From positions 4,800,001 through 4,864,000 of the forward strand of contig OZ245742.1 of the NCBI GenBank assembly GCA_965227295.1: 64,000 bases of DNA, read 5' to 3'. Below the pieces are notes generated by a model. The model had not been told where the DNA came from and did no database searches. It saw only the letters and a list, made by a program, of their open reading frames with translations. Positions 15,302-57,917 of this stretch are shown here, piece after piece; within the stretch, counting starts at the first letter, position 1; each line of letters starts with the position of its first letter. The DNA comes from Leptonemataceae bacterium. Its GTDB lineage: Bacteria > Spirochaetota > Leptospiria > Leptospirales > Leptonemataceae. The position numbers were made by a program, and so were the translations under genes.

Positions 15302-15313
15302 AAGGGCTCCCCG

Positions 15314-18300
15314 CTATTCCACGGGCTCGTCTCCCGGCGCCGCGTACATGCGCTCTTCTTCGCTGACCAGGGCCGACAGCCCGGACGTGGACTTCGCCAG
15401 AACGAACAACACCTTGATGGACGCGCCCACCACGAGCAGGTAGACGCCGGCGTCGAACAACAGCGGCGTCCCCAGATACAGTTCGCCGATGAGCGGCACA
15501 TCCTTAAACTTAAAGTTGTACTGAGTTAAGAAAGCCGCGCCCGCGAACAGTGCCGGCAACCCCGCCGCCACGGCGACGAACAAACCCGCGGCGGCCACAC
15601 GCATGGGGTCCACGCGGATCACGGCGTGAAAACGTTCGAGGCCCATCGAAAAACTCAGCAACACCAGGCTCACCGCCGTCAGGAGCCCGCCGATGAAACC
15701 GCCGCCGGGAAAGTTGTGACCGCGCAGCAAAAGATAGATGCTGAAGATCAGCAGCGGGAAAAACAAAAACGATACGACCGTACGATAGATGTACGAGTTC
15801 AGTCGTTCGTCCGGCCGCGTCCGGGAAACCGATGGCACGGACTCGTTCGGCACGCCGGTGCGTCCGAAGCGGCGGCGCTGGTAGCGCATCACGAGACCGA
15901 GACAACCCAGGGCCGCAATCAGAAAGACGCCGACTTCGAGCAACGTATCGAAGCCGCGGAAGTCCACCAGGATCGTGTTCACCGCGTTGGTCCCGGCCGC
16001 CGCGCTCACCGTGTTGTCGATGTAGTATTCCCCGGCCCGCTGCGCCCCATCCTCCAGCGGCGGCGCGCCGTCACGATAATTCACGGCGGTCCAGGCCAGG
16101 AGCGAGACCAGCACCCCGAAGCCGGCGGACACCGCGATCTGCAAAAAGCGACGCGGCGTAAACGCACCACGCATAGCTTCGCCGCGCTGGGCCTGCCCGG
16201 GAAAACGCGCGAGCAAGAGCAACGTAAGAATCAGCGTCACCGCTTCCACCAGGAGTTGCGTCAGCGCCAGGTCCGGTGCGCGATACAGAACGAAATAGAA
16301 CGTCACCAGGAAACCCGCGCCGGCGAGGGCGATCAATTGAATGATCCAACGATACGTCAACGTCACCGTGAGCACGAAGGCCGCGATGAGAACCGCGACG
16401 AATGCACGCAGTGAAGTTTCGCCGTTCAAATCCGTATGCAGGCGATCGTAGAACTGCGCCGGGTCCGGCCACAATCGGCTGAGTTCAGGGAACAGGAGCC
16501 AGAAGATTCCGCCGCCGAAGAGCACCGTAAACGCCGCGATGATCGGCAGGAATCGAAAGGGCCGATGCGATTGCAGGAGGTCCGTAAGGTGGCCGGCGAA
16601 ACGCGGCAGCCCGTTCAGGAGCCGGTCCGCGGCGTAATCAAAGCGCAGAAAATCCGGAATCGTTGCGAAAGACCAGCGCAGTGATCGCGCGAGCACGTAC
16701 AGCCCGGCCCCGGCCAGGATCGCGGAGAGACTCAGCAGCAGCTCCAGATTGAGGCCGTGCCATAACTTCAGCGGACCGGCAGTTAAGTCGGTCACGTCCG
16801 GAACCGCGAGGGCGTATTGAATCTTACCGAACGTTTTCGAAAACACGCCGGCCGACACGGCGGCCAGGGCGAGCAACAACGGCGGAAGCTGCAGCACAAA
16901 ACCCGGCGCATGGTACGAACCTTCGTTGAACTTACGCGCGAGCTCCGGCGCCGCCCGGCCGCCGAAGATCTCGAAGACCAGGCGGGCCGAGAACGCGACC
17001 TTCAAAATCGAAACAAACAACACCGCCGCCAGCGGAGCGTAACCGAGCGCCCCGCCACCCGCGGCGTAGGCCAGGGTATCGGTGAGCAACATCTCTTTGC
17101 TCAAGAAACCCACCGTCGGCGGAAAACCGGCCATGGCCGCGGCGGCCAGGGCGCAACTGAGCGCCGTAAGCGGCATGCGTCGCCACAGCCCGCCGAGTTG
17201 TCGGATGTCTTTGATGCCCGTCGCGTGGTCGACGATGCCCACGACCATGAACAGGCAGCCTTTATAGAAAACATGATTCAGCACGTGCACGAAATCAAAA
17301 CGCGCGCTGGGATCGTCGCCGAGGCTGAGTCCGTAAAAGCCGATCAGATAACCCAACTGTGAGACCGTACTGTGAGCCAGGATCGCCTTGAGTTTGTGCG
17401 AAAGCAGCGCGAAGACGCCGCCGATGATCATCGTACCGAAGCCGATAGAAACGAGCACCGGCGACCACCAATCATGTTCCGCAAACGCGGCGAACACCCG
17501 GGCCGTTAAGAAGACGCCCAGCTTCACCATGGTCGCGGAATGCAGATAGGCGCTGACGGGCGTGGGCGCGGTCATGGCGTTGGGCAACCAGAAGTGAAAC
17601 GGAAACTGCGCGGACTTCGCGAAGGCGCCGATCATGATCAACACGAAGGCCGCGGAAAAAAGCTGCTGCTGTTCGGCGGAGCGTACGTACTCGGCTTTGA
17701 AGATTTCGGAAAACTCGAGGGAACCACTCACCTGGGCGAACAACACCAATCCGGCGAGCAACGCCAGGCCGCCCGAGGCCGTGGTCACGAGGGCCATGCG
17801 CGCGCCGCGCCGGGACTCCGCGTCGCCGTGCAAAAATCCGATCAGCAAAAACGAAGCAAGACCGGTAAGCTCCCAGAATACGAAGAGCAGAATCAGGTTA
17901 TTCGAAAAGACCGCGCCGAGCATGGCGCCCATGAAAACCGTAAGGTACGCAAAAAAGCGGTTACGGTGTTCGTAGTGCTCGTCCAGATACTCCGAAGCGT
18001 AGAGAAAAACCAGAACGCCCGCACACGAGACGATGAGGCCGTAAAACAACGACAGGCCGTCCACCAGAAACGAAAGGTTGATGCCGACACTGCCCGACGG
18101 GCCGCTTATGGCTGAAATCCAGGGCCAGGCGAACACCAAACGGCCGCCGGGATACGCAAAGAACGCGAGGTATACGATGCAGCCCGCCGACACAAGCGGA
18201 ACGAGAACGGCCAGTCGACCGAGCAGGAGCCCGCGACGCAGGGACGCATGCGCTCCAACAACGGCAAGCAACGGCGCCGCAACAAACGGCGCAAAGACGG

Positions 18301-18346
18301 CACACAGGAGCACGTAATCCATAGAAAGCGGCGGAGATTCAGTCAT
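15314..18346 (-). CDS. mrpA: Mrp antiporter fused subunit A/B
   Basis: KSAQFPFHFWLPNAM and NTILVDFRGFDTLLE motifs, with C-terminal MrpB domain RGHNFPGGGFIGGL. Confidence 0.93.
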   Translation of the reverse strand: MTESPPLSMDYVLLCAVFAPFVAAPLLAVVGAHASLRRGLLLGRLAVLVPLVSAGCIVYLAFFAYPGGRLVFAWPWISAISGPSGSVGINLSFLVDGLSLFYGLIVSCAGVLVFLYASEYLDEHYEHRNRFFAYLTVFMGAMLGAVFSNNLILLFVFWELTGLASFLLIGFLHGDAESRRGARMALVTTASGGLALLAGLVLFAQVSGSLEFSEIFKAEYVRSAEQQQLFSAAFVLIMIGAFAKSAQFPFHFWLPNAMTAPTPVSAYLHSATMVKLGVFLTARVFAAFAEHDWWSPVLVSIGFGTMIIGGVFALLSHKLKAILAHSTVSQLGYLIGFYGLSLGDDPSARFDFVHVLNHVFYKGCLFMVVGIVDHATGIKDIRQLGGLWRRMPLTALSCALAAAAMAGFPPTVGFLSKEMLLTDTLAYAAGGGALGYAPLAAVLFVSILKVAFSARLVFEIFGGRAAPELARKFNEGSYHAPGFVLQLPPLLLALAAVSAGVFSKTFGKIQYALAVPDVTDLTAGPLKLWHGLNLELLLSLSAILAGAGLYVLARSLRWSFATIPDFLRFDYAADRLLNGLPRFAGHLTDLLQSHRPFRFLPIIAAFTVLFGGGIFWLLFPELSRLWPDPAQFYDRLHTDLNGETSLRAFVAVLIAAFVLTVTLTYRWIIQLIALAGAGFLVTFYFVLYRAPDLALTQLLVEAVTLILTLLLLARFPGQAQRGEAMRGAFTPRRFLQIAVSAGFGVLVSLLAWTAVNYRDGAPPLEDGAQRAGEYYIDNTVSAAAGTNAVNTILVDFRGFDTLLEVGVFLIAALGCLGLVMRYQRRRFGRTGVPNESVPSVSRTRPDERLNSYIYRTVVSFLFFPLLIFSIYLLLRGHNFPGGGFIGGLLTAVSLVLLSFSMGLERFHAVIRVDPMRVAAAGLFVAVAAGLPALFAGAAFLTQYNFKFKDVPLIGELYLGTPLLFDAGVYLLVVGASIKVLFVLAKSTSGLSALVSEEERMYAAPGDEPVE

Positions 18347-18494
18347 AGATAGTCAGCACCCTGGACGATGCCCACAAGAAATCCGCGGAACGTGAAAGAC
18401 GTTCGAATCCGGCGCATCTTTATATTGGAAGAAACGACCTGTCATAATGTGCAAAAACCGTTGTAGTCCCTCGAACGTCGTGCGAACTGGCAGC

Positions 18495-19796
18495 ATGATG
18501 AGCTATGCCCGCCTGCATTCCCTGGTGCTCTGCCTGGCCGTCGGCCTCGCGGCGCCGGCTGCCTTTGCCCAGGACTCCGGCGACGGAAATCCGCCCGCCG
18601 CGCAAACAAACTCGACGGACCGCGTCCCGGTTCCGGAACCTTCGGACAAAGCCCTTGCGTACTATCACAGCGGGAACGTGCTCTACGTCGTAAACCTCCT
18701 CCTGGGATTCGTCTTGCCCGCGCTGTTTTTATTCACGGGCTGGTCCGCAAAGCTGCGGAACCTGGCGGGGCGTTTCGGTCGGAACTGGTTTTTAACGATC
18801 GCACTCTACTACGTAATGTTCACCGGATTGATCTTTGTGATCGAGCTGCCCCTCGCCTACTACCAGGGGTTTCTCCGGCCCCACGCCTACGATCTTTCCA
18901 ATCAGACGTTTGCGAAGTGGGCCGCCGATACGTTCAAGTCCCTGGGCGTCGGCACGCTGACCGGGGTGCTCACGATCTGGGTACCGTACCTGCTGCTCGC
19001 CCGCTCACCGAAACGCTGGTGGCTCTATACGTCCCTGGCCGCGGCGCCGTTTTACGCGCTCATGCTTTTTATTACGCCGCTCTGGATTTCGCCGCTCTTC
19101 AACGACTTCGGCCCCATGCAAAACAAAGAACTCGAAGCGAAGATCCTCGAACTCGCCGATCGTTCCGACATCGAAGGCGCGCGCGTCTTTGAAGTGGAGA
19201 AGAGCGTCGACACGAAAACCGTGAACGCCTACGTCACGGGCATCGGCGATACGAAACGCATCGTTCTCTGGGACACGTTGATCGCGCGCCTGGACGAAGA
19301 CGAGGTGCTGTTCGTCATGGGGCACGAGATGGGCCACTACGTCCTCGGCCACGTCTATTACATGATGCTGCTCTTGTCGGCGGGTACCTTCGGGGCCCTC
19401 TTTCTCGCGGATCGTCTGGCCCGTTACGTCTTCGCGCGCGGCGGGGATCGCATGAACGTCCGGGAACTCGCCGACATCGCTTCGCTCCCGCTCTTAATGT
19501 TACTTGTGCAGATGTTATCGCTCTTCGCCACGCCGGCGCTATTGGCCTACTCCCGCTACAACGAACACGAGTCGGATCGATTCGGCCTTGAGCTCACGCA
19601 GAACAACCGCGCCTGCGCCCAGGCCTTCGCGAAGTTGCAGGAGCAGAATCTGGCGAATCCCCGCCCCGGTCCGCTGTACAAATTCATGCGCGCGGGACAT
19701 CCGCCGCTCGGCGAGCGCATCGATTACTGCAACGACTACCGGCCGTGGGAAACCGGCGAGCCCCTGGTGTACGGGAAGTTGTTCAGCGATCCGTAG
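18495..19796 (+). CDS. M48 (Ste24/HtpX-like) zinc metallopeptidase
   Basis: Signal peptide, TM segments, NAYVTG, HEMGH and EHESD motifs. Confidence 0.9.
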   Translation: MMSYARLHSLVLCLAVGLAAPAAFAQDSGDGNPPAAQTNSTDRVPVPEPSDKALAYYHSGNVLYVVNLLLGFVLPALFLFTGWSAKLRNLAGRFGRNWFLTIALYYVMFTGLIFVIELPLAYYQGFLRPHAYDLSNQTFAKWAADTFKSLGVGTLTGVLTIWVPYLLLARSPKRWWLYTSLAAAPFYALMLFITPLWISPLFNDFGPMQNKELEAKILELADRSDIEGARVFEVEKSVDTKTVNAYVTGIGDTKRIVLWDTLIARLDEDEVLFVMGHEMGHYVLGHVYYMMLLLSAGTFGALFLADRLARYVFARGGDRMNVRELADIASLPLLMLLVQMLSLFATPALLAYSRYNEHESDRFGLELTQNNRACAQAFAKLQEQNLANPRPGPLYKFMRAGHPPLGERIDYCNDYRPWETGEPLVYGKLFSDP

Positions 19797-19870
19797 TTCG
19801 GAAAGCGCAGCGCCGACACGGCGTTCATTTTTCTGCATGATTTTTGCACGTTCCCGTGCGGAACTGACCC

Positions 19871-20428
19871 ATGCGGAAGACCCACCGTCTCACCATCATC
19901 CTGCTCGGCCTCGCCCTCGCCGCCGGGCTGCCTGCGGCCCCCGTAACCACGCTGGCGCAAATCCGTTCGGCCTACTCCGCCGTCAATACGCGCATCAAAG
20001 CCGGCGAACTATTTACGGTAACGGCGACGATCGATCGCGTGCTTCGCGGGAGCGGGGCGCAGAAGGTCGAGATGCGCTTCTACTACGAAGACAAACTCGA
20101 CGGCGAACTGGCGCCGGAGACGTATCCGCTGTTGCACAAGATCACGGTCCGCTTCAACGTCGCCGCGCCGGAATCGTACCGTGAGTATGTCTTCGTGAAC
20201 AACAGCCCGGTCTTCGCGTACTACAAGGACGAACTCGACGAAAGCGAACGCCGCTTTTACTTTCGGTACAACAAACAACTGCTGCACATCAAACGAACCG
20301 TGGCGACGGCTACCGAAGACCGTTCCGAAAATTTTACGAAACAGGAACTCACCGAAGCAAAGGCGGTGCTGTCCGACATCGGCGATTATCGCAAGGTGTT
20401 TGCGCGCATTCTACAATCGGCGAGATGA
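19871..20428 (+). CDS. hypothetical exported protein
   Basis: 185-aa ORF with a signal-peptide-like N-terminus. Confidence 0.7.
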   Translation: MRKTHRLTIILLGLALAAGLPAAPVTTLAQIRSAYSAVNTRIKAGELFTVTATIDRVLRGSGAQKVEMRFYYEDKLDGELAPETYPLLHKITVRFNVAAPESYREYVFVNNSPVFAYYKDELDESERRFYFRYNKQLLHIKRTVATATEDRSENFTKQELTEAKAVLSDIGDYRKVFARILQSAR

Positions 20429-20438
20429 TCGTCCGCCG

Positions 20439-21554
20439 TCAGGAGGACCTTGCGATAGGACGCGCCGCCCCGCGGTAGGCCGCATGAATCTCCGCGCGAA
20501 TCGCTTCGATGTCGCGCGGAAAGAGCTTCTCAATGCGCGCGAGACTCTTCGAACGCCGACAGGCGTGATACACCGGCGCGACGGTTTCCCGAAAACCACC
20601 GTCCGGATCGCGCAGCAGCAGGCCGATGCCGCGGGCGATCAAACGTTCCAGGTTACGCGGTTTCTCGCGCACCTGCTTCTCGGTTCCGTTCAACACCAGG
20701 TAAACGAAGTTCGCGTACTCGAAGTAGGACTCGGCCTGGGCGATGAACTCTTTACGCAGGTCGGCGCTGTCCTTAACTTCTACCGCGAGTAACTCAATGT
20801 CCGGCAGATTCAGCGCTCCGGTTTCGATGCGCAGACCGGCCAGGTCCGGATTCTCCCAATCGTTCATGCGCGTGCGCCCGTGCAAATGTTCGGCGAAGAG
20901 ATACTTCCAGCCCGCGGTCTCGCGGCCGTCGTCACGCCGATGCTGCCGGCCCGCCGCAAAGAACGCGAGGACCTCCGGATACAGCGCAATCTCCCCACGC
21001 AATTCACGACCCGCTTCGCGGAGTCCCTCGGGCAGGCTCGTGCCGCGCGACGGCGAAGTACTGCGTCCGCCTTCAATGACCACGAGCTCCCCCGGTCGTC
21101 CGGGTGCCGGGCTCCGCCGGGGCGCGATGCCGAGACCGCCGGCACGTTTTTCCGCGATGCCCAGGTGGCGGAGCGTATTGCGCAGGCCGTCGTGCAGAGC
21201 TTCCGGTACCGCGAACAACTTGAGGATCGATTCCAGCGCGGCGCGACTTTCGAAGATGTCGCCGCCCTCGCTGTAGGCCCGGGATGTCACTTCCCAGAGA
21301 TAGACGTGCAGCCCGCGCCACGCCCGGCGAAACTGTGCACGACTGAGTTTCGTTTTGTAGTACTTACGCGCGTCCAGACGCGCGATGCCGAGCCCGGTAA
21401 GAATCTCCCGCGCGGCCTCGGCCGGGAATTCGTTGCGCAGTTCCGGGGGAATGAGCGCGCCGATGCCGACGCCGTCCCCGGCCTTCAGCAAACGCACGGC
21501 GTGATTGATGAGCCGCGCCACGGGACGCAGGCGTTTGTCGGTGTAGAGATTCAT
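20439..21554 (-). CDS. protein with C-terminal PD-(D/E)XK restriction-endonuclease-like domain (COG2958/HrgA-like)
   Basis: WENPDLAG...AVEVK...QAESY..ANFVYLV pattern. Confidence 0.55.
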   Translation of the reverse strand: MNLYTDKRLRPVARLINHAVRLLKAGDGVGIGALIPPELRNEFPAEAAREILTGLGIARLDARKYYKTKLSRAQFRRAWRGLHVYLWEVTSRAYSEGGDIFESRAALESILKLFAVPEALHDGLRNTLRHLGIAEKRAGGLGIAPRRSPAPGRPGELVVIEGGRSTSPSRGTSLPEGLREAGRELRGEIALYPEVLAFFAAGRQHRRDDGRETAGWKYLFAEHLHGRTRMNDWENPDLAGLRIETGALNLPDIELLAVEVKDSADLRKEFIAQAESYFEYANFVYLVLNGTEKQVREKPRNLERLIARGIGLLLRDPDGGFRETVAPVYHACRRSKSLARIEKLFPRDIEAIRAEIHAAYRGAARPIARSS

Positions 21555-21685
21555 AAGCGTGACATAAGTCTCCGGCTAATGCGCCGCGCGCAGATCTTAG
21601 CGCCGGCGTACCATCTGACAAGCGCGATTGTGCATCTTCGCAAAAACCCCTCGCCATACACCCCGCGTCGAAAAAGATCGGAGCC

Positions 21686-22558
21686 GTGACCACCAGGCAA
21701 TCCTCCCGTTCCGTCCTCATCACCGGCGCCTCCACGGGCATCGGTTACGCCGCCGCCAAAGTACTAATCCAGCGCGGCCTGCACGTCTTCGGCAGCGTTC
21801 GAAAACCGGCCGACGGCGATCGACTGGCCGGCGACTTCGGTGAAGCATTCACGCCCCTCGTCTTCGACGTCACCGATCGTCCGTCCATCGACGCGGCGGC
21901 GAAACAAACCGCGGAAGCCCTGAACGGGGCGAACCTGCTCGGCCTTGTGAACAACGCCGGCGTGGCCGTGCCCGGACCCCTCGCTCACATGCCGGTGGAA
22001 GAAGTCTTGCGCCAGCTGGAAATCAACGTCACCGGTGCCCTGCAAGTCACGCAGGCGTTCCTGCCGTATCTCGGCATGGATCGCGGACGTAGCGGCGGCC
22101 CGGGTCGCATCGTAAACATCAGTTCGGTAGCAGGTAAGCGCGGCGCGCCGTTTCTTGGCCCGTACTCCGCATCGAAGCACGCTCTCGAGGGCCTGTCCGA
22201 ATCGTTGCGGCGCGAACTCATGCTGTACGGCATCGACGTCATCATCGTGGCGCCGGGAGCGGTGGCCACGCCCATCTGGGACAAGGCCGAAGAACAGGAG
22301 GTCGCTCCGTATCGCGACACCGACTACGTCGAGGCCCTGCTGAAATTGCAGAAGACCATGGTAGACCGCGGGCGGAAGCGCGGCCTACCCCCGGAAGTCG
22401 TCGGCCGTAAGATCTACGAGGCGCTGACGGTGCGTAAACCGAAGACACGTTACGCCGTGGTCCCGTCGCTGTTGCAGGATGTGATTCTTCCCGCGATCCT
22501 GCCAAAGCGCATCCTCGATCGCATGATTGCAAAGATGTTCGGTCTTCAGCGCAGATAA
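21686..22558 (+). CDS. short-chain dehydrogenase/reductase
   Basis: TGASTGIG, NNAG and YSASK motifs. Confidence 0.93.
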   Translation: MTTRQSSRSVLITGASTGIGYAAAKVLIQRGLHVFGSVRKPADGDRLAGDFGEAFTPLVFDVTDRPSIDAAAKQTAEALNGANLLGLVNNAGVAVPGPLAHMPVEEVLRQLEINVTGALQVTQAFLPYLGMDRGRSGGPGRIVNISSVAGKRGAPFLGPYSASKHALEGLSESLRRELMLYGIDVIIVAPGAVATPIWDKAEEQEVAPYRDTDYVEALLKLQKTMVDRGRKRGLPPEVVGRKIYEALTVRKPKTRYAVVPSLLQDVILPAILPKRILDRMIAKMFGLQRR

Positions 22559-22573
22559 ATGGAAAAACGCGCG

Positions 22574-24076
22574 CCAGCGAATCCGCACCCGCTCCGCCCC
22601 GCGGATAGAGTGGGGCTCCGGGGTGCGGATTCGCTGGATGGATCTTTACGACGAAGACGCCGGGGACTTATGCCTTTCGCCGATGCGGAAAGCCGGCGCT
22701 TCAAAACACCGCGCCTGCGAATGACCGAAAGTTTCAGTAATCCAGGAGCTGTTGCTCGCGGCGTTTGCCGTGAGACACATGAGTTAAGTTGCGCAATGGA
22801 GAGGGGATTGATTTGGCTACGGCGAAGCGGGAGTTGTGGTGATTCGTTTTGCAAAGATTGTCCACCTCGACCCGGACGTCGGTTTGTGACTCAGCGATCG
22901 GAACGTTTCTTACGACGAAGACGCCGTTCCGGTCCGCCTTACCATGCTCCCCGGCACAACCTCCGTTCGTCAGCTGAAACCAGCCGCACCCATAAAAGCC
23001 TTAATGTACACTGGCCGTTACTTACACCACGATTCGGGGCGCCTGCGAACTACCGAAAAGTTTTCGGTAGTTCAAGAGCTGTGGTTCGCGTCGTTTGCCG
23101 TGAGAAACATTAGGCAAGTTGCGCTATGGTAAAGGGGTTGATTTGGCTACGGCGAAGCGGGAGTTGTGGTGATTCGTTTTGCAAAGATTGTCCGCCTCGA
23201 CCCGGACGTCGGTTTGTGACTCAGCGATCGGAACGTTTCCTGAGACGAAGACGCCGTTCCGGTGCGCGCCCCACATTTCCCCGGCATGACCTCCGTTCAT
23301 CTGCTGGACCCAGCCGTGCCCATAAAAGTCTAAATCCAAACTGGCCTCAACTTACATCACGATTCGGGGCGTAATCGAAGGAATCAAACGTTTCCGGTAA
23401 TTCAAGAGCCGCGGTTCGTAACGGTTGCCGCGAAAAACATAAAGTCGGTCGCCGCATCATGCAGGGGTTTTTATGGCTACGGCGAAGCGGGAGTTGTGGA
23501 TTTTCGTTTTGCAAAGCACGCTGAAGTCGACCCGGACGCTGGTTGTGCGACTCAGCTATCGTAACGGTTCCCACGACGAAGACGCCGTTCCGGTGCGCCT
23601 TACCACATTCCCCGGCATGACCTCCGTGGTCGCCTGGAACCAGCCGTACCCATAAAAGGCTCAATGTACACTGGCCGTCACTTACTTCACGATTCGGGGC
23701 GTCCGCGAGCAACACGCGCGTTTCCGGTAATTCAAGATCTGTGGTTCGCAACTATTGCCGTGAGAAACATGAAGTAAGTCGCGGAATTGTGAAGGGATTT
23801 TTTTGGCTACGGCTCTTCGGAGTTGTGGTGATTCGTTTTGCCTGGCACGCTGCCAGTGGGGAACCAACTGCCGCGGCCCCAACAAGTGGGGCCTTGCCGA
23901 CACCGGACGCTGGTTGTGCGACTCAGCGATCGGAACGTTTCTTACGACGAAGACGCCGTTCCGGTGCGCCGTACCACATTCCCCGGCATGACCTCCGCAC
24001 GTCAGCTGGAACCAGCCGTACCCATACAATGCTTAATGCACACTGGCCGTCACTTACACCAAGATTCGGGCGTGTT
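22574..24076 (+). repeat. tandem array A of the ~330-bp unit (about 4 units)
   Basis: Anchor ggctacggc at 22815, 23145, 23475 and 23805 (period exactly 330). Confidence 0.95.
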
Positions 24077-24080
24077 CAAA

Positions 24081-25133
24081 TTACTGCGATTGCGTGATCG
24101 TCGTGTACACGACGCTACGCCAGTCGTTGCTGCCGACGATCGTCGGGGTGTAGGTGGTGAGATCGGCGCTGTATTCGATACGGCCGGATTCCGAAACCAC
24201 GACGACGTTCGCGCCGTCGGTGGCCATGTGATGGGCGACACCGAAGACGGCATCCCCGGTGTCCGTGGCGGCCCCGGTGCCGTTGGAAGTCGTATACATC
24301 GTCCCGTCGTCGCCGCCGAGGGCGAAGAGGCCGGCCCCGGAAACAAACGCGGAACCGTTCAGCTCCGCGGAGACGTGCGTGCCGGTCGCATTCGGAAAAC
24401 CGCCGATGGTGGCCGCGGTGTGAATGCTCCCCGTCGCATCTTCCATTAAATAGACGCCGTTCCCGTAGGCGGCGATCACCCAATCCTGCGCACCCGCGTT
24501 GGCGTTGCTCCAGCTGATGCCGTCCGTGGAAGTCGCCCGCACACCGCCGCGCCCGAACGCCACGAAGCCGCCGTTCAAATACTCCACGCCTTCCAGGCGA
24601 TTCCCGAGGGTCAACGTGCGATCGGTCCAGGTAATGCCGTCCGGAGAACTGAGCATGACATCACTGGTACCGGTGCCGCCGACAGCGACGTAGATACCCG
24701 CGCCGAACGCGACGCCCTCCAGGTCCAGACCGGTGCCCGAGCTCTGCGTGGACCAGGTGCCGGCCTCGCCGTTGGTGGAGGTCACGATGCGCCCGCTCGC
24801 GCCCACGGCCACAAAGCCCGCGTCGCCGTATGTCACGCCCCGGAGATCCGCACCACCGACATCCGCGGATTGCCAGTTCGTCTGTCCGTCCTCGGAGTAG
24901 GCGATGGTGCCGCTGTGCCCCACGGCGAGCCAGCGGTTGACGGTCGTGGTCGTCGGTGTGGTCGTCGGGGCGACGGCAGGATCCACGACACTGCTCAAAT
25001 AAAACGGCAGCAGCGCCGAGTCGCTGCATGTGAGATCGGTGCCGTTGCACTCCGGCGACGGCAGGCAGGCGATGGAAAAACCGGAGAATGCGGCCACCAA
25101 CACCGCGAGGATATGCGAACGTAGAGAGGACAC
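24081..25133 (-). CDS. lipoprotein with beta-propeller-like (BNR/Ycf48-like) repeats
   Basis: Lipobox-like FSIAC, Thr/Pro linker and repeated VAVGxSG.I..S.DG..W; start codon uncertain. Confidence 0.75.
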   Translation of the reverse strand: MSSLRSHILAVLVAAFSGFSIACLPSPECNGTDLTCSDSALLPFYLSSVVDPAVAPTTTPTTTTVNRWLAVGHSGTIAYSEDGQTNWQSADVGGADLRGVTYGDAGFVAVGASGRIVTSTNGEAGTWSTQSSGTGLDLEGVAFGAGIYVAVGGTGTSDVMLSSPDGITWTDRTLTLGNRLEGVEYLNGGFVAFGRGGVRATSTDGISWSNANAGAQDWVIAAYGNGVYLMEDATGSIHTAATIGGFPNATGTHVSAELNGSAFVSGAGLFALGGDDGTMYTTSNGTGAATDTGDAVFGVAHHMATDGANVVVVSESGRIEYSADLTTYTPTIVGSNDWRSVVYTTITQSQ

Positions 25134-25257
25134 CGAACAGTATAGAGTAACGATCTTTAGACGCGCCGCCTGAAGAAAAAGTTCAGCTTCAATACATGCT
25201 GGCTTGATTTTATTCATATATGTTGACCGATCGGCCGGTAGCCGCGAATCGGTCAAC

Positions 25258-25629
25258 ATGGCGGAACCGGTCCTGCTCTTCGGCGAATTTCTCCTGCGCA
25301 ACGGAGTCATTTCCTCCGCCCATTTGCTCGAAGCCCTGGAGTACCAGAAGGAAACCATGCGCGTCCTCTCGGTGATGGGTTTTCTGGAACACGGCCTCGA
25401 AGAAAACGATCGCAAACAACTCTTCGAACGTATTTCCTCCGGCGAAAGTCCCGAGGCCGCCGCCGCGGAACTCGGTTTCCTGAGCGCCGCCGAACTCGAA
25501 GACGTCTTTCGCGCGAACAAGGACTTCCGCCTGCCCGTGGCCGCTACTTACACCACGATTCGGGGCGTGTGCGAACGGACAAAATGTTTTCGGCAGTTCA
25601 AGAGCTGTGGTTCGCGGCGTTTACCGTGA
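25258..25629 (+). CDS. MshEN-like motif protein, apparently truncated by repeat array B
   Basis: LFGEFLLRNGVISSAHLLEALEYQK; the last ~30 codons and the stop lie inside the repeat. Confidence 0.6.
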   Translation: MAEPVLLFGEFLLRNGVISSAHLLEALEYQKETMRVLSVMGFLEHGLEENDRKQLFERISSGESPEAAAAELGFLSAAELEDVFRANKDFRLPVAATYTTIRGVCERTKCFRQFKSCGSRRLP

Positions 25630-26654
25630 GAAACGTAAGGTAAGTTGCAATATGGTGAAGGGATTTTTTGGCTACGGCTCTTCGGAGTTGTGGTGATTCG
25701 TTTTGCAAAGCACGCTGGAGTCGACCCGGACGTCGGATTGCGACTCAGCCATCGCAACGTTTCTCACGACGAAGACGCCGTTCCGGTCCGCGCCCCACAT
25801 TTCCCCGGCATGACCTCCGCTCGTCAGCTGGAACCAGTTGTAACCTTAAAAGGCTTAATTTACACTGGCCGCTACTTACACCACGATTCGGGGCGTGTGC
25901 GAACGGACAAAATGTTTTCGGCAGTTCAAGAGCTGTGGTTCGCGGCGTTTGCCGTGAGAAACGCAAGTTAAGCTGCAATATGGTGAAGAGATTTTTTGGC
26001 TACGGCTCTTCGGAGTTGTGGTGATTCGTTTTGCAAAGCACGCTGGAGTCGACCCGGACGTCGGATTGCGACTCAGCCATCGCAACGTTTCTCACGACGA
26101 AGACGCCGTTCCGGTCCGCGCCCCACATTTCCCCGGCATGACCTCCGCTCGTCAGCTGGAACCAGCCGTACCCACAAAAGGCTTAATATACACTGGCCGC
26201 TACTTACACCACGACTCGGGGCGTGTGCGAACGAACAAAATGTTTCCGGTAGTTCAAGAGCTGTGATTCGCAGCGTTTGCCGTGAGAAACATAATGTAAG
26301 CTGCTCAATCATGAAGCCATTTTTTTGGCTACGGCGAAGCGGGAGTTGTGGTGATTCGTTTTGCCAAGAATGCTGCGTTCGACCCGGACGCTGGTTGTGC
26401 GACTCAGCTATCGTAACGTTTCCCACTACGAAGACGCCGGGGACTTATGCTTTCCGCCGATGCGGAAAGCCGGCGGTTCAGAACTCTCGCTGAAGCGAGA
26501 ATTCTGCCGGTGCGCCCTACCATGCTCCCCGGCGTGACCTCCGTGGTCGCCTGGAACCAGTTGTAACCATAAAAGGCTTAGTATACATCGACCGCCACTT
26601 ACACCACGATTCGGGGCCTACTTGAACTAACAAATGTTTTCCGTAGTTCAAGAG
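25538..26654 (+). repeat. tandem array B of the ~329-bp unit (about 3.3 units)
   Basis: Anchor ggctac at 25670, 25998 and 26327 (periods 328 and 329); the first two units are nearly identical. Confidence 0.95.
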
Positions 26655-27772
26655 TCGAAAAAATCTTCCCGGGCAAAATCGCCGGTACCGCCCGCCAGTT
26701 CATGATCGTAGAGCTCCGGAATCATCAGTTGCACCTTCCAGCGTAAGGCGATGCCGTGGGTCTGTCCGAGGCCCGCCGGCGGATAGAGCGCGCGAAAGAC
26801 CGGGGCAAAGGCGACTTCGCCGTCGAAGTACTCCTCAATGCGGCCTCGGGGTGGAATGCGCTCCACGGACTGCTCGTACAAAACAACAACACGCGATGGA
26901 ACCTCAAAGCCCGAATCGTCCCGGGCCCAACGGCGCAGACTCCCCGCCAGGTCGCCGCGCTGACCGCATTCGATGTTGTAAGCGATGATGCGGAGCGTCG
27001 GGCCGACCAGACCGGCTTCAGTGTATCCTGTAAGTAATTTACGAATCGATGTTACGCTATCCCGGCGGATGCGCGCAGGTCGTTTCCGCCAGGCAATGCT
27101 CGCAAAAGAACGCAACAGCAACCACATCGTTTTCAAGAGTGCGGCGGTAATCATTCCACCGAACCCGAACGTAAAAATGAGGACAAATAACCATTCATCC
27201 GCAGTGTACGATGCCAGGTCCACGAAACGGTAGACGATGGTACCGTAGAGGGACCAGCAAGTGATAAGCACCGTCCCAAGGCCGACCATGCCCCACTTCA
27301 ACCGCGCCGGCACGATCCGAAAGTTTCGCCCCGCATGCGAATCGTCCCGCGGTGCAACGATCGCTTCCGCCGGTCGTTCCACCGCCGGGGCGCGGGGCGG
27401 CAGTTCCAGGCGTACCTCTTCTTCGATGACGTCGTCGGGAGCCGGGCCGGGAGTTTTTATCAACAGCTTCGCATACAAACGCAGGTCGATTTCGCGGCCG
27501 TTATAAGAATAAAACGGCAGGCGCCGCGCGTCGATGCGGCGTTCAAATTCGCCACGACCGTCGAAAGTGAAGTGCAGTCGATATACCGTTTCGCGCCGGT
27601 GCAGTTCCAGGGGCGGCCGGACCTCCACGCGCACGTCCAGTTCCAGTTCCGCACTACGGCCGGCGTAAACCTCTCCGGTCTGGATCTTAAGCACGCAGAG
27701 GACTTTGTCTTTTTCCCGGACGTGCCGGAGTGAAACGGCGCCGCCGGAAATCTCTATCTGACGCGGCCGCAC
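26648..27772 (-). CDS. hypothetical two-TM protein (paralog 1 of a local family)
   Basis: Shares YSYxGxxI, LRIIAYNxExGQ and YFxxExxFxxVFRxLYPP with 31800-32941. Confidence 0.75.
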   Translation of the reverse strand: MRPRQIEISGGAVSLRHVREKDKVLCVLKIQTGEVYAGRSAELELDVRVEVRPPLELHRRETVYRLHFTFDGRGEFERRIDARRLPFYSYNGREIDLRLYAKLLIKTPGPAPDDVIEEEVRLELPPRAPAVERPAEAIVAPRDDSHAGRNFRIVPARLKWGMVGLGTVLITCWSLYGTIVYRFVDLASYTADEWLFVLIFTFGFGGMITAALLKTMWLLLRSFASIAWRKRPARIRRDSVTSIRKLLTGYTEAGLVGPTLRIIAYNIECGQRGDLAGSLRRWARDDSGFEVPSRVVVLYEQSVERIPPRGRIEEYFDGEVAFAPVFRALYPPAGLGQTHGIALRWKVQLMIPELYDHELAGGTGDFAREDFFDS

Positions 27773-27778
27773 GTCCGC

Positions 27779-30169
27779 TTACGCCTTCACCCCCAGCCGC
27801 TCTTCCAGGGCGGCAATGCGCTTGAGCACTTCGATGACGCTGTCGGGGTTCAGCGAAATGCTGTCGATCCCCGCCTCCACCAGGAACTCGGCAAAGTCCG
27901 GGTAGTCCGACGGCCCCTGACCGCAGATGCCCACCTCGCAGCCCTTCGCGTGCGCCTGTTCGATGACCATTCGAATCGCCGCCTTCACGGCGTCGTTGCG
28001 TTCGTCGAAGAGGTACGCTAACTTTCCCGAATCGCGATCTACGCCGAGGGTGAGCTGTGTGAGATCGTTGGACCCGATGGAGAAACCGTCGAAGCGATCG
28101 GCAAACTCCGATGCCAGGAAGACGTTCGCCGGAATCTCGCACATGACGTAAACTTTCAGGCCGTTTTCGCCGCGTTTGAGGCCGTTCTTCTGGAGCTCCT
28201 CGTGTACGTGATCGGCCTCCGTGAGCGTACGGCAGAACGGGATCATGATCCAGACGTTGTCCATGCCGATCTCTTCGCGCACCTTCTTGATGGCCCGACA
28301 TTCCAGGGCAAAGCCTTCCCGGTACTCGTCGCTGTAATAGCGCGACGCGCCGCGCCAGCCGAGCATGGGGTTTTCCTCACCGGGTTCGAACTCCCGCCCG
28401 CCGATCAAGTCGGCGTACTCGTTCGTTTTGAAATCGCTCATGCGCACGAGCACCGGATGCGGATACTGCACCGCGGCGATCTGGGCGATGCCCAGGGCCA
28501 GGCGCTCCACGAAGTACTCGGACTTGTCCGGATAACCGTCCGTGAGCTCGGCGATCGTGGCGATGGCGTCCCGGTCTTCGATGTGCGGCCAGTTGAGCAG
28601 CGCGAGCGGATGGATCTTGATGATGGAGTTGATGATGAACTCCATGCGCGCGAGACCCACGCCTTTCGCGGGCAATCGCCACCAGCGCATGGCGGCCCCC
28701 GGCGAAGCGATGTTTAACTTAATCTGAGTGCGTGTTTGCGGCAGGTCCTCAACGCGGATCTCGTCCTGAGTATACTTTAAGATGCCCTCGTAGATGTAGC
28801 CGATGTTGCCCTCGGCGCACGATGCGGTCACCTCCTGGCCTTCTTTGAGAATGTCCGTGGCGTGCGACACGCCCACGATGGCCGGGATGCCCAGTTCACG
28901 ACTCACGATGGCCGCGTGCGACGTGCGCCCGCCGTGATCCGTAATGATCGCCGCCGCGCGTTTCATGACCGGGACCCAGTCCGGGTCCGTGATCTCCGTT
29001 ACCAGGATGCAGCCGTCCTCGAACTGATCGATCTCTTTCGCCGTGCGTAACACTTTCACCTTACCGGTGGCCACCGCTTCACCGATGGCGATGCCTTCGA
29101 GGAGCGGTGCGCCGTGAGCGCCGCCGAGATGGTACGACTTGAAGACGCCCGCCTCTTGCGAGGACTGCACCGTCTCCGGCCGCGCCTGTACCACGAAGAG
29201 ATCGCCGGACTCGCCGTCCTTGGCCCACTCGATGTCCATGGGCCGCGCGTAGTGTTTTTCGATGGTCGCCGTCCAGCGCGCGAGTTGTAAGATCTCGTCG
29301 TCGCTCAGCACGAACGCACTGCGTTCCGCGCGCGTGCATTCGATGTTGCGCGTCGTCGCCGTGGCGCCGCGGGCGTAGATCATCTTTTGTTCTTTGGCGC
29401 CGATGTCTTTTTGAATGATGGGACGTTTCTTCGGATCATCCAACAACGGCTTGAACACGCGGTACTCGTCCGGCGTGATCGCGCCCTGCACCACGTTTTC
29501 GCCGATGCCCCAGCCCGCGGTGATCACCACGGAGTTACGAAAACCGCTCTCGGTATCGATGGAAAAGATCACCCCGGATCCCGCGAGATCCGAACGCACC
29601 ATCTTCTGAATGCCGATGGACAGCGCCGTATCCATGTGGTCGAAGCCTTTGCTCTGACGATAGATGATGGCACGGTCGGTGTACAGCGACGCGAAACAAC
29701 GCCGGCACGCGAAGAGCAGCTCTTCTTCGCCGACGACGTTCAGAATGGTCTCCTGTTGCCCCGCGAAACTCGCGTCCGGCAAATCCTCGGCGGTGGCCGA
29801 CGAACGCACGGCTACGTCCGCCTCGTCCATCGAGTACATCTTCGATAGTTCGCGGTAGGCCGCGCGCAGTTCGTCGGCGAGCATCGTGGGGAACGCGGCG
29901 TTGAGGATCATGCCGCGCACACTGCGGCCGACGCTTGCTAAGTTGCGTTCACCGCGACTTAGTTCGTCGAGTTTCGCACGCATAGGTTCGGCCAGCTTGT
30001 TGTACTGGAGGATTTCGCGGAAGGCGTCCGAGGTCGTGGCGAAGCCGTTGGGCACGTTCACCCCCTCGATTTTCAGGTGATGGATCATCTCGCCCAGGGA
30101 CGAGTTCTTGCCGCCGACTAACGGGACGTCTTCTTTGCGTAGCGTATCGAACCAGCGTATGTATTGCAT
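27779..30169 (-). CDS. ppsA: phosphoenolpyruvate synthase
   Basis: VGGKNSSLGEM, VAVRSSATAEDLPDASFAGQQET, GGRTSHAAIVSRELG and FSIGSNDLTQL motifs. Confidence 0.97.
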   Translation of the reverse strand: MQYIRWFDTLRKEDVPLVGGKNSSLGEMIHHLKIEGVNVPNGFATTSDAFREILQYNKLAEPMRAKLDELSRGERNLASVGRSVRGMILNAAFPTMLADELRAAYRELSKMYSMDEADVAVRSSATAEDLPDASFAGQQETILNVVGEEELLFACRRCFASLYTDRAIIYRQSKGFDHMDTALSIGIQKMVRSDLAGSGVIFSIDTESGFRNSVVITAGWGIGENVVQGAITPDEYRVFKPLLDDPKKRPIIQKDIGAKEQKMIYARGATATTRNIECTRAERSAFVLSDDEILQLARWTATIEKHYARPMDIEWAKDGESGDLFVVQARPETVQSSQEAGVFKSYHLGGAHGAPLLEGIAIGEAVATGKVKVLRTAKEIDQFEDGCILVTEITDPDWVPVMKRAAAIITDHGGRTSHAAIVSRELGIPAIVGVSHATDILKEGQEVTASCAEGNIGYIYEGILKYTQDEIRVEDLPQTRTQIKLNIASPGAAMRWWRLPAKGVGLARMEFIINSIIKIHPLALLNWPHIEDRDAIATIAELTDGYPDKSEYFVERLALGIAQIAAVQYPHPVLVRMSDFKTNEYADLIGGREFEPGEENPMLGWRGASRYYSDEYREGFALECRAIKKVREEIGMDNVWIMIPFCRTLTEADHVHEELQKNGLKRGENGLKVYVMCEIPANVFLASEFADRFDGFSIGSNDLTQLTLGVDRDSGKLAYLFDERNDAVKAAIRMVIEQAHAKGCEVGICGQGPSDYPDFAEFLVEAGIDSISLNPDSVIEVLKRIAALEERLGVKA

Positions 30170-32890: not shown

Positions 32891-32906
32891 GCCGGCAACC
32901 CCGCGC

Positions 32907-42048: not shown

Positions 42049-42815
42049 CGGCCAGTGCAGCCACAGCTCTTGAACTACGGTATCGTTTTGTTCGTTCGAA
42101 CACGCCCCGAATCGTGGTGTAAGTCGCGGCCAGTGTATATTAAGATCATTTTGGTTACAACTGATTCCAGCTGACGAACGGAGGTCATGCCGGGGGATGT
42201 GGTAAGGCGGACCGGAACGGCGTCTTCATCGTAAAGATCCAGCAAGCGAATCCGCACCCCGGAGCCCCGCTCTATTCGCGGGGCGGAGCGGGTGCGGATT
42301 CGCGCCTTGCAAAACGAATCACCACAACTCCGAAGAGCCGTAGCAAAAATAATCCCTTCATGATTGCACAACTTACTTTACGTTTCTCACGATAGACGCC
42401 GCGAACCACAGCTCTTGAACTACGGTATCGTTTTAGTCGTTCGAACACGCCCCGAATCGAGGTGTAAGTAACGTCCAGTGTACATTAAGCTTTTTTTGGT
42501 TACAACTGATTCCAGGGGCAAGGCCACGCTTGTCGTGGCCGCGGCAGTTGTTCCCCTCCCACGGAGGTCATGCCGGGGAAATGTGGGGTGCGCACCGGAA
42601 CGGCGTCTTCGTCGCAGGAAACGTTACGATAGTTGAGTCGCAAACCGACGCCCGGGTCGACTCCGGCGTGCTTTGCAAAACGAATCACCACAACTCCGAA
42701 GAGCCGTAGCAAAAAAAAATCCCTTCATGATTGCACAACTTACCTTACGTTTCTCACGGTAGACGCCGCGAACAAGGCGCACCGGAACGGCGTCTTCGTC
42801 GCAGGAAACGTTACG
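41971..42815 (-). repeat. array C of the ~329-bp unit, inverted (about 2 units plus fragments)
   Basis: Reverse-complement blocks (ccacaactccgaagagccgtagc, cgccccgaatcg, accggaacggcgtcttc) occur repeatedly. Confidence 0.92.
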
Positions 42816-42878
42816 GAAACGGTTCCCATGCTCCGCTTGGGACTTGACACGCGTCCGGTTCTTCACGATCTTTCCCGT

Positions 42879-55109: not shown

Positions 55110-56561
55110 GTGAAGACCGTCGCCATCGCCGGCGCGGGCGGTTTCATCGGCCGCACGCTCATCGACAAAGCCCTGCGGGCTAAGTTCCACATCGTCGGGC
55201 TCAGTCGCAGCGCCCCGCCCGGCCACACCGACACCAGCGGCATTGAATGGCGCCGCTGCGACCTCTATTCCCTCCTCGATGCCGAAGCCGCGCTAGAGGG
55301 CGTGGACTACGCCGTGTATCTCGTGCACTCCATGCTGCCGAGCGCGCGGCTCATTCAGGGAAACTTCGCGGATACGGATCTGATCCTCGCCGACAATTTC
55401 GCCCGCGCGGCCCGCAAGAACAAACTGAAACACATCGTATATTTAGGCGGGATCATTCCGAACGAGGGCGAAGCCGAAGATGAAACGAAGTTAAGCGAAC
55501 ACCTGCGCTCGCGACTGGAAGTGGAACGCACGCTGGGCGGCCGCGGGACGCCCCTCACCGCGGTGCGCGCCGGTCTCGTGGTGGGTCCGGGCGGTTCCTC
55601 GTTTTCGATTCTGGAAAAACTGGTGCAACGCCTGCCCATGATGATCTGTCCGGCCTGGACGAACACGCGGTCCCAACCGGTGGCGCTGGAAGATGTGATC
55701 ACCGCCATCGATTACTGCATCGGCCGCAAAGCGAGCTACGGCCGCAGCCTGGATGTCGCCGGCCCGGACGTCCTCACGTACCGCGAAATGATGGAGATTA
55801 CCGCGAAGAGCATGGGACTCCGCCGGTTCTTGTTGACCGTGCCGTTCTTTTCACCGCGTCTTTCAAAACTCTGGGTCTCTTTGTTTTCCGGCGCTTCGAT
55901 GAACCTGGTCTCACCGCTCATCGAAAGCCTGAAGCACGAGATGGTGGCGCGCCCCGATCCTTTAACCGAAAAGATGCCGCTGAAACGAATCGGTTTTCGC
56001 GAGGCCGTGCAGGAATCGGTGCACGCACCGCAAAACAATCCGTCGCCGTTTCGCATCAAACGTCTGCTTCAGAATCGTTATCGCGTTACCAAGTTCGTGC
56101 GTTCTATTCAACGCCTGCCACGTCCGGCCGGTCGCGACGCGCTCTGGATTGCCAGGGAGTACGGACGCTGGCTCCCGCGATTCCTCTGGCCTTTTTTGCG
56201 CGTAACGACGAACGACAACGGGGACTGTGCGTTTTTTATTCGCGGCCTGCCGTTTTCGTTGCTGGAGCTGGAACTCTCGTCGGAACGCAGCAGCCCGGAC
56301 CGTCAGCTCTACTACATTACCGGCGGTATCCTGGCGGAACAAACCCGGCGCGGGCGTCTGGAATTTCGCATTGTGCCCGACGGCGAAAGCGTGCTTGCGG
56401 CCATCCACGACTTCGCTCCGGCTTTGCCGTGGTTCGTGTACAACTACACCCAGGCCCTGGTCCATCTTATGGTCATGCGCCACTTCGGCCGCCACCTGGA
56501 TAAACTGGACCGGCTCGCGGCCGTTACCGTGAAGAAAAGAGAGTATGTCGTGAAACAGTGA
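55110..56561 (+). CDS. NAD(P)-binding epimerase-like protein with C-terminal extension (YbjT-like)
   Basis: AGAGGFIG, YLVHSM and SEHLRSRLEVE motifs. Confidence 0.85.
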   Translation: MKTVAIAGAGGFIGRTLIDKALRAKFHIVGLSRSAPPGHTDTSGIEWRRCDLYSLLDAEAALEGVDYAVYLVHSMLPSARLIQGNFADTDLILADNFARAARKNKLKHIVYLGGIIPNEGEAEDETKLSEHLRSRLEVERTLGGRGTPLTAVRAGLVVGPGGSSFSILEKLVQRLPMMICPAWTNTRSQPVALEDVITAIDYCIGRKASYGRSLDVAGPDVLTYREMMEITAKSMGLRRFLLTVPFFSPRLSKLWVSLFSGASMNLVSPLIESLKHEMVARPDPLTEKMPLKRIGFREAVQESVHAPQNNPSPFRIKRLLQNRYRVTKFVRSIQRLPRPAGRDALWIAREYGRWLPRFLWPFLRVTTNDNGDCAFFIRGLPFSLLELELSSERSSPDRQLYYITGGILAEQTRRGRLEFRIVPDGESVLAAIHDFAPALPWFVYNYTQALVHLMVMRHFGRHLDKLDRLAAVTVKKREYVVKQ

Positions 56562-57917
56562 AGGGTCTTTTTTGGCTACGGCTCGCGGGAGTTGTGGAGT
56601 TTCGTTTTGTTAAGAACGCTTACTTCGACCCGGACGCTGGTTGTGCGACTCAGCTACGATAGCGATTCTTGCGGCAAAGACGCCGGGGACTTATGCTTTC
56701 CGCTGATGCGGAAAGCCGGCGGTTCAGAACTCTCGCTGAAGCGAGAATTCTGCCGGTGCGCCTTACCACATTCCCCGGCATGACCTCCGTGCGTCAGCTG
56801 GAACCAGTTGTACCCGAAAAGGGCTTAATTTACGTTGGCCGCTACTTACATCACGATTCGGGGCGTGTTCGAACGAATCAAACGTTTCCGGTAGTTCAAG
56901 AGCCGCGGTTCGTTCACGTTGCCGTGAGAAACAGAAGGTATGTTGCACAATGTTGAAGGGGTTGATTTCGCTACGGCTCGCGGGAGTTGTGGAATTTCGT
57001 TTTGTTAAGAACACTGCGTTCGACCCGGACGTCGGTTTGCGAGTCAGCTACCGCAGCGTTTCTTACGGCGAAGACGCCGTTCCGGTGCGCGCCCCACATA
57101 TCCCCGGCACAACCTCCGTGGTCGCCTGGAACCAGTTGTGACCATAAAAGTCTTAATCCAGATTGGCCTTAACTTACACCACGAGTCGGGGCGTGCTCGA
57201 ACAAATAAAAACGTTTCCGGTAGCTCAAGAGCTGTGTCTCGCGACGTTTGCCGTGAGACACACAAGGTAAGTTCCGCAATGGTGAAGGGATTGATTTGGC
57301 TACGGCTCTTCGGAGTTGTGGAGTTTCGTTTTACAAAGAACGTTTGCTTCGACCCGGACGTCGGTTTGCGAGTCAGCTACCGCAGCGTTTCTTACGGCGA
57401 AGACGCCGTTCCGGTGCGCGCCCCACATATCCCCGGCACAACCTCCGTGGTCGCCTGGAACCAGTTGTGACCATAAAAGTCTTAATCCAGATTGGCCTTA
57501 ACTTACACCACGAGTCGGGGCGTGCTCGAACAAATAAAAACGTTTCCGGTAGCTCAAGAGTCGCGGTTCGTAGCGGTTGCCGCGAGAAGCATGAAGTACA
57601 TTGCGCAACCGTGAAAGGCCTTTTTTGGCTACAGCGAAGCGGGAGTTGTGGTATGTCGTTTTGCTAAGAACGCGGCATTCGACCCGGACGCTGGTTTGCG
57701 ACTCAGCTACCGCCGGTGTCTCTTGCGGCGAAGACGCCGGGGACTTATGCTTTCCGCCGATGCGGAAAGCCGGCGGTTCAGAACTCTCGCTGAAGCGAGA
57801 ATTCTGCCGGTCCGCCTTACCACATTCCCCGGCATGACCTCCGCCAGTGGGGAACCAACTGCCGCGGCCCCAACAAGCGGGGCCTTGCCGACACCGGACG
57901 TTGGTTTGCGACTCAGC
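56523..57917 (+). repeat. tandem array D of the ~329-bp unit (about 3.7 units)
   Basis: Anchor at 56574, 56969, 57298 and 57627 (395 including an inserted module, then 329 and 329). Confidence 0.95.

Follow-up and report, generated by a model that had tools for sequence, protein, structure and literature searches.

The intergenic repeats of bacteria, e.g., repetitive extragenic palindromes (REPs), BOX elements, enterobacterial repetitive intergenic consensus (ERIC) sequences, or miniature inverted-repeat transposable elements (MITEs), are usually short and occur singly or in small clusters. REPs, together with bacterial interspersed mosaic elements (BIMEs), are the closest described systems to the one considered here. 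According to one account, REPs are located predominantly downstream of open reading frames (ORFs), in gaps of the unidirectional and the convergent kind; one superfamily of REPs lacks a transposase of its own, and loss of the REP-associated tyrosine transposase (RAYT) is known in some REP-bearing strains (PMC3733652). The element described below was found in a window of 64,000 nucleotides from a Leptonemataceae bacterium (Spirochaetota; assembly GCA_965227295.1, contig OZ245742.1, positions 4,800,001 to 4,864,000). In contrast to the short repeats named above, it is a composite unit of more than 300 bp, arranged head to tail at about 119 sites and making up 1.2% of the chromosome. The best-supported reading is that the arrays resemble a bacterial satellite, or an overgrown intergenic element of the REP/BIME type, more than an RNA gene. 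To the fuller proposal, that they are a REP/BIME-like non-autonomous DNA repeat which owes its growth in place to unequal recombination and its homogeneity to gene conversion, we give about an even chance.

A profile built from 75 full-length units gave 366 nhmmer matches in the genome, covering 73,216 bp of the single 5,938,550-bp contig and corresponding to about 222 unit-equivalents. The matches group into 119 clusters, 83 of at least 300 bp and 56 of at least two units; the largest measures 2,339 bp, and arrays are at most 7 units long. The search with blastn and nhmmer thus extends far beyond the four arrays that an earlier note on the window had described, with about 13 units and a period of 328–330 bp. 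Within the window that description holds. Array extents were defined by Tandem Repeats Finder (TRF), by blastn with one unit (window 25866-26193), and by the nhmmer profile. TRF calls three arrays, at 22711-23841 (period 330, 3.4 copies, 80% matches), 25538-26439 (period 328, 2.7 copies, 91% matches), and 56766-57739 (period 329, 3.0 copies, 84% matches); blastn and nhmmer add the inverted fourth and bring the total to 4.2 + 3.4 + 2.3 + 4.1, about 14 unit-equivalents (Table 1). In the profile and the alignment, the unit of about 329 bp consists of invariant blocks alternating with variable tracts of fixed length, and each of the conserved blocks listed previously is a high-information stretch of the 75-unit conservation profile. 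The period of 328–330 bp and the presence of the same variable tracts in several arrays agree with the note's view that this is not a CRISPR, cas genes not having been searched for.

The unit is also modular. Optional hairpin modules of 40–70 nt occur at five or more fixed unit positions, and at least two of these positions lie in predicted hairpin loops. The palindrome that often opens an array has 41 of its 44 genomic copies in or beside arrays, the module H2 has 16 of 18 in or near arrays, and all 23 copies of the two-hairpin module H4 are in arrays. Since the modules are nearly confined to arrays, they are parts of the family and not independent mobile elements. The boundaries of the arrays fall at many unit positions. 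Starts are most frequent at unit position ~183 (17 arrays) and ~1-10 (12 arrays), ends at ~40-50 (26 arrays) and ~320-329 (18 arrays).

That such a pattern comes from faulty assembly, or from a decayed repetitive protein gene, is extremely improbable. Short-read contigs of two public runs, which may come from the source sample, were compared with the window; none of them spans a whole array, which is what an artefact would lead one to expect, but they join unique flanks to array edges at 22606, 23997, 25567, and 26561. All four examined flank–array junctions are therefore crossed, and the read depth of the repeats is 10–100 times that of the flanks; a third run gave no contig that matched the window. 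Moreover, an assembly artefact is impossible for 119 arrays whose units differ by about 20%. At window 23516-23849 the contigs of both runs jump over one unit (332 bases) and have three additional letters at the joint; possibly the number of units varies here, or a contig belonging to a different array was placed at this site. A coding origin could be suggested by stretches of more than 110 codons without a stop, which appear when single units are joined artificially into trimers (plus strand, 18 of 68; minus strand, 15 of 68). The median stop-free stretch, however, is 101 codons for the plus strand and 82 for the minus strand, one-nucleotide indels are frequent, the variable columns are contiguous with no every-third-position pattern, and the period does not divide by three. 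The earlier judgement that a shared reading frame is unlikely agrees with these data. The unit is non-coding, a statement made with no translated search of array ORFs against protein libraries.

Units resemble their array-mates more than they resemble units elsewhere. Two units of one array are on average 87% identical (39 pairs), two units of different arrays 79% (2,239 pairs). Of 57 units, 37 have their closest counterpart in their own array, and units 1 and 2 of array 2 share 97% identity; the best pair from different arrays reaches 94%. Minor alleles are present in at least two arrays at 207 of 325 columns, leaving 118 columns without shared variants, and such shared variants account for nearly all of the divergence between units. 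Copies that come from a common pool, continue to exchange sequence with it, and are duplicated locally would be expected to look like this. Private alleles, confined to a single array, are infrequent and uniformly distributed (variance-to-mean ratio 0.89), and they amount to 0.57 per column in the 118 block columns and 0.39 per column in the 207 variable columns. They are not depleted in the conserved blocks and hence show no purifying selection on each resident copy. Eukaryotic-type satellite DNA, with units of about 150–350 bp, is similar in its head-to-tail repetition, in the greater likeness of neighbours, in the lack of coding capacity, and in variants that are common to, and reshuffled among, arrays. 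Head-to-tail arrays and concerted evolution of neighbours, the features that mark a satellite, are both present here. Unlike satellites, however, these arrays do not exceed 7 units and are scattered over 119 gene-flanked sites, with no long centromere or telomere blocks.

The distribution among relatives suggests which part of the unit is old. BLAST of the unit against 40 relatives gave matches in only two genomes, both of the same genus, and only over unit positions ~127-200. In these genomes the core of about 73 nt is present as dispersed solo copies, of which at least 15 and 23 were scored. Solo cores, capable of forming a hairpin, are in fact present in the intergenic DNA of all three genomes of the genus, in most cases a short distance downstream of a gene. 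A covariance model of the core made from sequence only detected it in three of the 121 genomes searched from the order, i.e., the source genome and both of its genus-mates (2/2), and in none of 39 other family members or 79 genomes of the second family. The relatives' cores are intergenic; 15 of 20 examined follow a co-oriented gene, and where a downstream gene was called, an opposed gene is next in 11 of 16. Two of the relatives' copies carry an optional hairpin module at the same core position. No tandem repeat of about 330 bp was found near the relatives' cores (28 loci, 81 kb), and comparison of the same-genus genomes with window 18400-30200 gave only scattered genes of 66–76% identity, with no synteny. 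The full 329-bp unit was found only in the source genome. A strict core pattern, searched in a GTDB-based collection with one genome per species, matched six contigs only, titled as two metagenome-assembled genomes, one of them labelled Leptospirales; the source genome or very near genomes may be absent from this and the public collections searched. In the latter, a unit-specific motif gave 13 genome loci and 21 metagenome loci, all chance single matches over the motif region only; 19 of the 21 metagenome loci gave any profile match, and none was longer than 63 nt. With no Rfam match, the unit in one genome, and the core in 3 of 121, the earlier description of a lineage-specific amplified element that belongs to no named family stands. 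A literature search, narrow and generic and so not establishing absence from print, found no description of such arrays. In the window itself, a loose regular expression for the core had one match in an FtsX-like permease gene (48786-48871, plus strand), which is not in the nhmmer output and is probably due to chance.

The arrays are not distributed evenly with respect to genes. Contexts were counted for the 83 arrays of at least 300 bp, using a simple ORF caller (4,552 genes, 86% coverage). Convergent gaps hold 39 of the 83, against a background of 863 of 4,551 gaps (19%; binomial p = 6e-9), co-directional gaps hold 37, and divergent gaps hold 7, fewer than expected (p = 0.011). Convergent and co-directional gaps together account for 76 of 83, and the flanking ORF ends are mostly about 0–40 nt from the array. 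For the window, the note had placed three of the four arrays between convergent genes; gene calls and Pfam correct this to two (arrays 1 and 4). In co-directional gaps, the array points in the same direction as the genes in 19 cases and is opposed in 18. Array orientation is therefore independent of the surrounding transcription, and this speaks against a role for a transcript of one particular strand that would be linked to the genes at either side. The replication strand was taken from cumulative GC skew (minimum ~1.18 Mb, maximum ~4.09 Mb). In 54 of 83 arrays the unit has its top strand on the C-rich strand (p = 0.008), a bias to be given limited weight because it is modest and one of several tests.

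In this location the arrays are like REPs, which in the account cited above likewise lie downstream of genes in convergent or co-directional gaps, with some superfamilies also without a dedicated transposase (PMC3733652). Both are non-coding, extragenic, and present in high copy number. Both also have a conserved core that can form a hairpin, are built as mosaics or from modules with copies in clusters, and are restricted to few hosts. In contrast to the short imperfect palindromes of 20–40 bp that are repeated in REPs, the unit measures 329 bp, only a hairpin of about 24 nt in the core resembles a REP, and there is no RAYT gene in this genome. The word CTAC lies on the 5' side of the core hairpin, inside its stem. 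The tag of a REP lies outside the stem, with a polarity opposite to that of this CTAC word.

The preference for 3' gene ends could also mean that the element serves the host, as a terminator or insulator between converging transcription units or as a platform for a nucleoid- or replication-associated protein. It would account for the enrichment in convergent gaps and the depletion in divergent promoter regions, for the modest replication-strand bias, and, if the conserved blocks are protein-binding sites, for the blocky conservation. Some core variants do form a hairpin with a U-rich tail, and this motif makes up 3 of the 6 terminator-like sites in 22400-26800. However, six sites are no excess over the 5.2 +/- 2.4 found in shuffles, and a strand-specific terminator should follow the direction of the upstream gene, whereas the split is 19 to 18. 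The two same-genus genomes get by on solo cores alone, the conserved blocks show no deficit of private mutations, and simple tolerance of insertions at 3' ends predicts the same location bias. Taking both sides into account, we consider a host-serving role unlikely.

The earlier note had left two alternatives, a tandem structured non-coding RNA or a non-autonomous element mobilised in trans. In the first, units or arrays would be transcribed, either independently or by prolonging the upstream gene at its 3' end, maybe giving monomers of about 330 nt. The features that make this attractive are the blocky conservation with variable tracts of fixed length and the optional hairpin modules, which keep their position in the unit and share the same core position in two relatives' copies. 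Rfam gave no match, either at gathering thresholds over the whole window or at E <= 1 over 25400-26800 (array 2). Folding of whole units was no better than that of shuffled sequences (z of -0.45 for the plus strand and -0.58 for the minus strand), and RNAalifold on 68 units gave -15.3 kcal/mol with compensatory change at 2 of 27 pairs. Candidate helices rich in G-U pairs are present on the plus strand, as an RNA would allow; however, in a scan of all column pairs, the best candidate has 7 bp and varies mostly by wobble transitions. For a candidate long-range pair with G/A and C/T variants, the four combinations occur 27, 22, 11, and 8 times, and the two positions are independent (Fisher p = 1.0).

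The core was considered separately. A three-helix model derived from single-sequence folds of relatives' cores was tested on 35 diverged copies from relatives. Its blocks are mutually complementary, with 78.9% of cells paired as opposed to 33–47% when the partners are slid, which is in favour of an RNA. Compared with shuffled alignments, however, the same value is not exceptional (78.0 +/- 0.8%, equalled by 88 of 500), and covariation does not exceed that given by column make-up (0.142 vs. 0.133, equalled by 66 of 500). The fold z of 16 core segments ranges from +0.51 to -3.5, most within +/-1.5; some variants fold into a stem of 10 bp closed by a UUCG loop, or into a 14-bp hairpin (z = -3.5). 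The hairpin potential is inherited but not visibly maintained copy by copy. A scan for sigma-70-type promoters over two arrays found one site where 1.7 were expected, i.e., no per-unit promoter signal, and the random orientation relative to flanking transcription is a further difficulty. The RNA alternative thus failed every test run (fold z, RNAalifold, core model, and long-range pair), and we regard it as rather unlikely. Tandem small-RNA and type I toxin-antitoxin loci, e.g., long direct repeats that contain a small toxic ORF together with an antisense RNA, are also intergenic tandem duplications of a non-coding-looking unit of a few hundred bp, but the arrays have no conserved small ORF, fixed frame, or per-unit promoter signal, and about 222 unit-equivalents is far beyond what those loci reach.

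The second alternative fits better than the RNA as regards the non-autonomous DNA element; its mobilisation in trans remains inference because no mobilising enzyme was found next to a copy anywhere in the genome and no target-site duplications are seen. The note's statement that the window holds no such enzyme is correct, since none of the 54 called genes matches a transposase, reverse transcriptase (RT), integrase, or HUH family (9 genes scanned at E<=0.001 and 45 at E<=1e-5). A search of the genome for a copy adjoining an RT or HUH/RAYT gene, the check named in the note, gave the same answer. There are no matches to Y1_Tnp (RAYT/IS200, PF01797), for which the control was positive in 6 of 14 genomes, none to TnpB, and none to Y2_Tnp, for which the control genomes are silent too; a single IS110 gene and ten RT genes are present, none of them adjacent to an array. 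The longest word common to both flanks averages 5.16 against 5.20 for mispaired flanks (83 arrays), i.e., no target-site duplication. These absences weigh against a REP/BIME-like repeat, and so do the following points. The arrays are direct and head to tail, with a unit of more than 300 bp, whereas REPs alternate in orientation. Conservation is strongly blocky, the 118 columns without shared variants standing beside contiguous hypervariable tracts, which is not predicted for purely neutral DNA and therefore speaks for some constraint on source copies; the blocks would then mirror a constraint on the source of the copies or on the agent of their dispersal. Structured RNAs, too, typically have optional hairpin modules at set positions such as those seen here, of which at least two are in predicted loops. 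Finally, the unequal recombination and gene conversion are read from identity patterns rather than from polymorphism between strains.

It might be argued that the element is still actively mobilised in trans, by a resident multi-copy RT or by a transposase of a new kind that works on single-stranded DNA at the replication fork. The number of dispersed sites (>100), the replication-strand bias, and the preferred array ends at unit ~40-50 (26 arrays) and ~183 (17 arrays) are in line with this. Several of the ten RT ORFs are identical (624 aa twice, 472 aa twice, and 456 aa four times; there is also a lone 341-aa RT), which suggests active group II introns. None of them, nor the IS110 gene, nor another enzyme gene, has a copy beside it; target-site duplications are lacking, and array ends are spread over many unit positions. 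With 94% as the best and 79% as the mean identity between arrays, there is no sign of a recent burst. We therefore hold active mobilisation to be quite improbable. One insertion sequence (IS) does touch the family as a guest. An IS-type transposase gene (HTH_29 + rve_3/rve; genome 1034861-1035931) lies between two fragments of one unit (1034621-1036075), covering unit positions 133-328 and 34-140, so that the IS was apparently inserted into the unit, and the overlap of about 8 positions may be its target duplication. Except for this transposase, genes enclosed by close pairs of arrays are ordinary (MFS transporter, histidine kinase, ferritin-like protein, cyclase).

The unit also retains some inverted symmetry. 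Unit 102-144 matches the reverse complement of 298-343 weakly (z = 3.6, equalled by 2 of 500 shuffles), and comparison of the arms across 57 units scores 10.0 against 7.9 in shuffles. With strict scoring, the self-complementarity of whole units is not above shuffles in two of three typical units, and no sub-repeat was found within the unit beyond a single 14/20 match. Two solo copies (genome 776341-776527 and 1378617-1378802) consist of the core and its own inverted copy, forming imperfect palindromes of about 186 bp with arm identities of 84% (over 170 aligned bases) and 76%, respectively; near-palindromic solo variants such as the first are a further point in favour of active mobilisation. 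The same inverted pairing of cores is present at one relative's locus (locus positions 1501-1568 and 1612-1661). The arrays are thus like MITEs in being non-autonomous, intergenic, and built of a unit of a few hundred bp, with residual inverted symmetry and a few solo near-perfect long palindromes. They differ in the lack of target-site duplication, in array ends that do not match the inverted-symmetry ends of the unit, in that no partner transposase with matching ends was found, and in the tandem arrangement, which is not the usual state of a MITE.

The REP/BIME-like repeat grown in place can be given the following history. An old genus-wide core would have been joined into the 329-bp composite unit in the source lineage, and the unit would have spread to tolerated sites at 3' gene ends. 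There, neighbouring units may recombine unequally or slip during replication, so that an array is lengthened or shortened at its site, while gene conversion may redistribute a restricted set of variant tracts from array to array. Copies would persist where promoters and coding sequence are undisturbed. New sites might be seeded by a lost or unrecognised trans-acting enzyme, or by recombination or replication-fork capture of array fragments, a route proposed because array ends are ragged and target-site duplications are absent. The data themselves show where the arrays lie, how the unit is built from modules, that the core is confined to the genus, how identity is distributed, and that the RNA tests are negative; we infer the recombination steps and, above all, the seeding of new sites.

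The blocky conservation and the hairpins at fixed positions are the reason why readings in terms of a functional RNA or a protein-binding platform stay alive, with roughly one chance in three for the two together. A stronger version, which we think improbable, makes the arrays functional tandem genes or platforms: either an RNA of about 329 nt is cut or circularised to monomers from concatemers, or the arrays are satellite DNA with a dedicated genus-specific binding protein. If the former is true, then the arrays would be a bacterial counterpart of ribozyme-bearing satellite and retrozyme repeats; if the latter, then a genus-specific protein would shape transcription or replication at 3' gene ends. 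In either case, function and not history would explain the blocky conservation, the fixed hairpins, and the occurrence of the core throughout the genus. Independently of this choice, sister species that have only the solo 73-nt core make a natural before-and-after system for the origin and spread of satellite-like DNA in a compact genome. The system also bears on how dispersed arrays are homogenised by recombination and on whether such DNA at 3' gene ends is tolerated or used. In practice, the arrays break short-read assemblies and create spurious ORFs in annotation.

Table 1. Positions of the arrays, parts of the repeat unit, and neighbouring or related genes (window coordinates unless marked as genome).
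Feature	Position	Strand	Description	Basis
Array 1	22574..24085	+	palindrome and partial unit, then 4.2 units at 22711-24085	TRF, sequence, nhmmer
Array 1 opening	~22574-22640		GC-rich palindromic module	sequence
Array 1 partial unit	reaches ~22710		contains inserted hairpin module	sequence
Array 2	25538..26657	+	3.4 units, between two minus-strand genes	TRF, blastn, nhmmer, gene calls
Array 3	42059..42823	-	2.3 units, inverted; between plus-strand SpoIIE phosphatase and GDSL lipase genes	blastn, nhmmer, Pfam
Array 4	56511..57861	+	4.1 units, in convergent gap between NAD-binding protein (+) and methyltransferase (-) genes	TRF, nhmmer, Pfam
Reference unit	25866..26193	+	328 bp; sets the register, unit position 1 = 25866	
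73-nt core	25994..26064	+	in one unit (unit positions ~128-200); only part common to two same-genus genomes	
Hairpin module H2	23838..23905	+	optional; insertion at unit position ~178	alignment
Two-hairpin module H4	26428..26500	+	optional; takes the place of a 5-nt loop at unit position ~245	
Short-chain dehydrogenase gene	21686..22558	+	left of array 1; stop codon ~15 nt before the array	
Gene between arrays 1 and 2	24081..25520	-	479 aa; no clear family, weak DUF6242 match below cut-off	
RT ORFs, examples (genome)	40883-41494, 765390-766001, 32821-33507, 3743265-3743951, 3069061-3069648			

Array 2 begins 18 nt upstream of the putative start codon of the gene at 24081-25520, and for this reason the promoter of that gene must sit in or beyond the array. 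No tRNA or tmRNA was found in the window when looked for. The window also contains ordinary metabolic genes with no tie to the repeats, namely a cytochrome c552 (NrfA-like) gene with a NapC/NirT-type partner (6924-8798, minus strand) and a multi-subunit Mrp-type cation/proton antiporter operon (12229-18346, minus strand).

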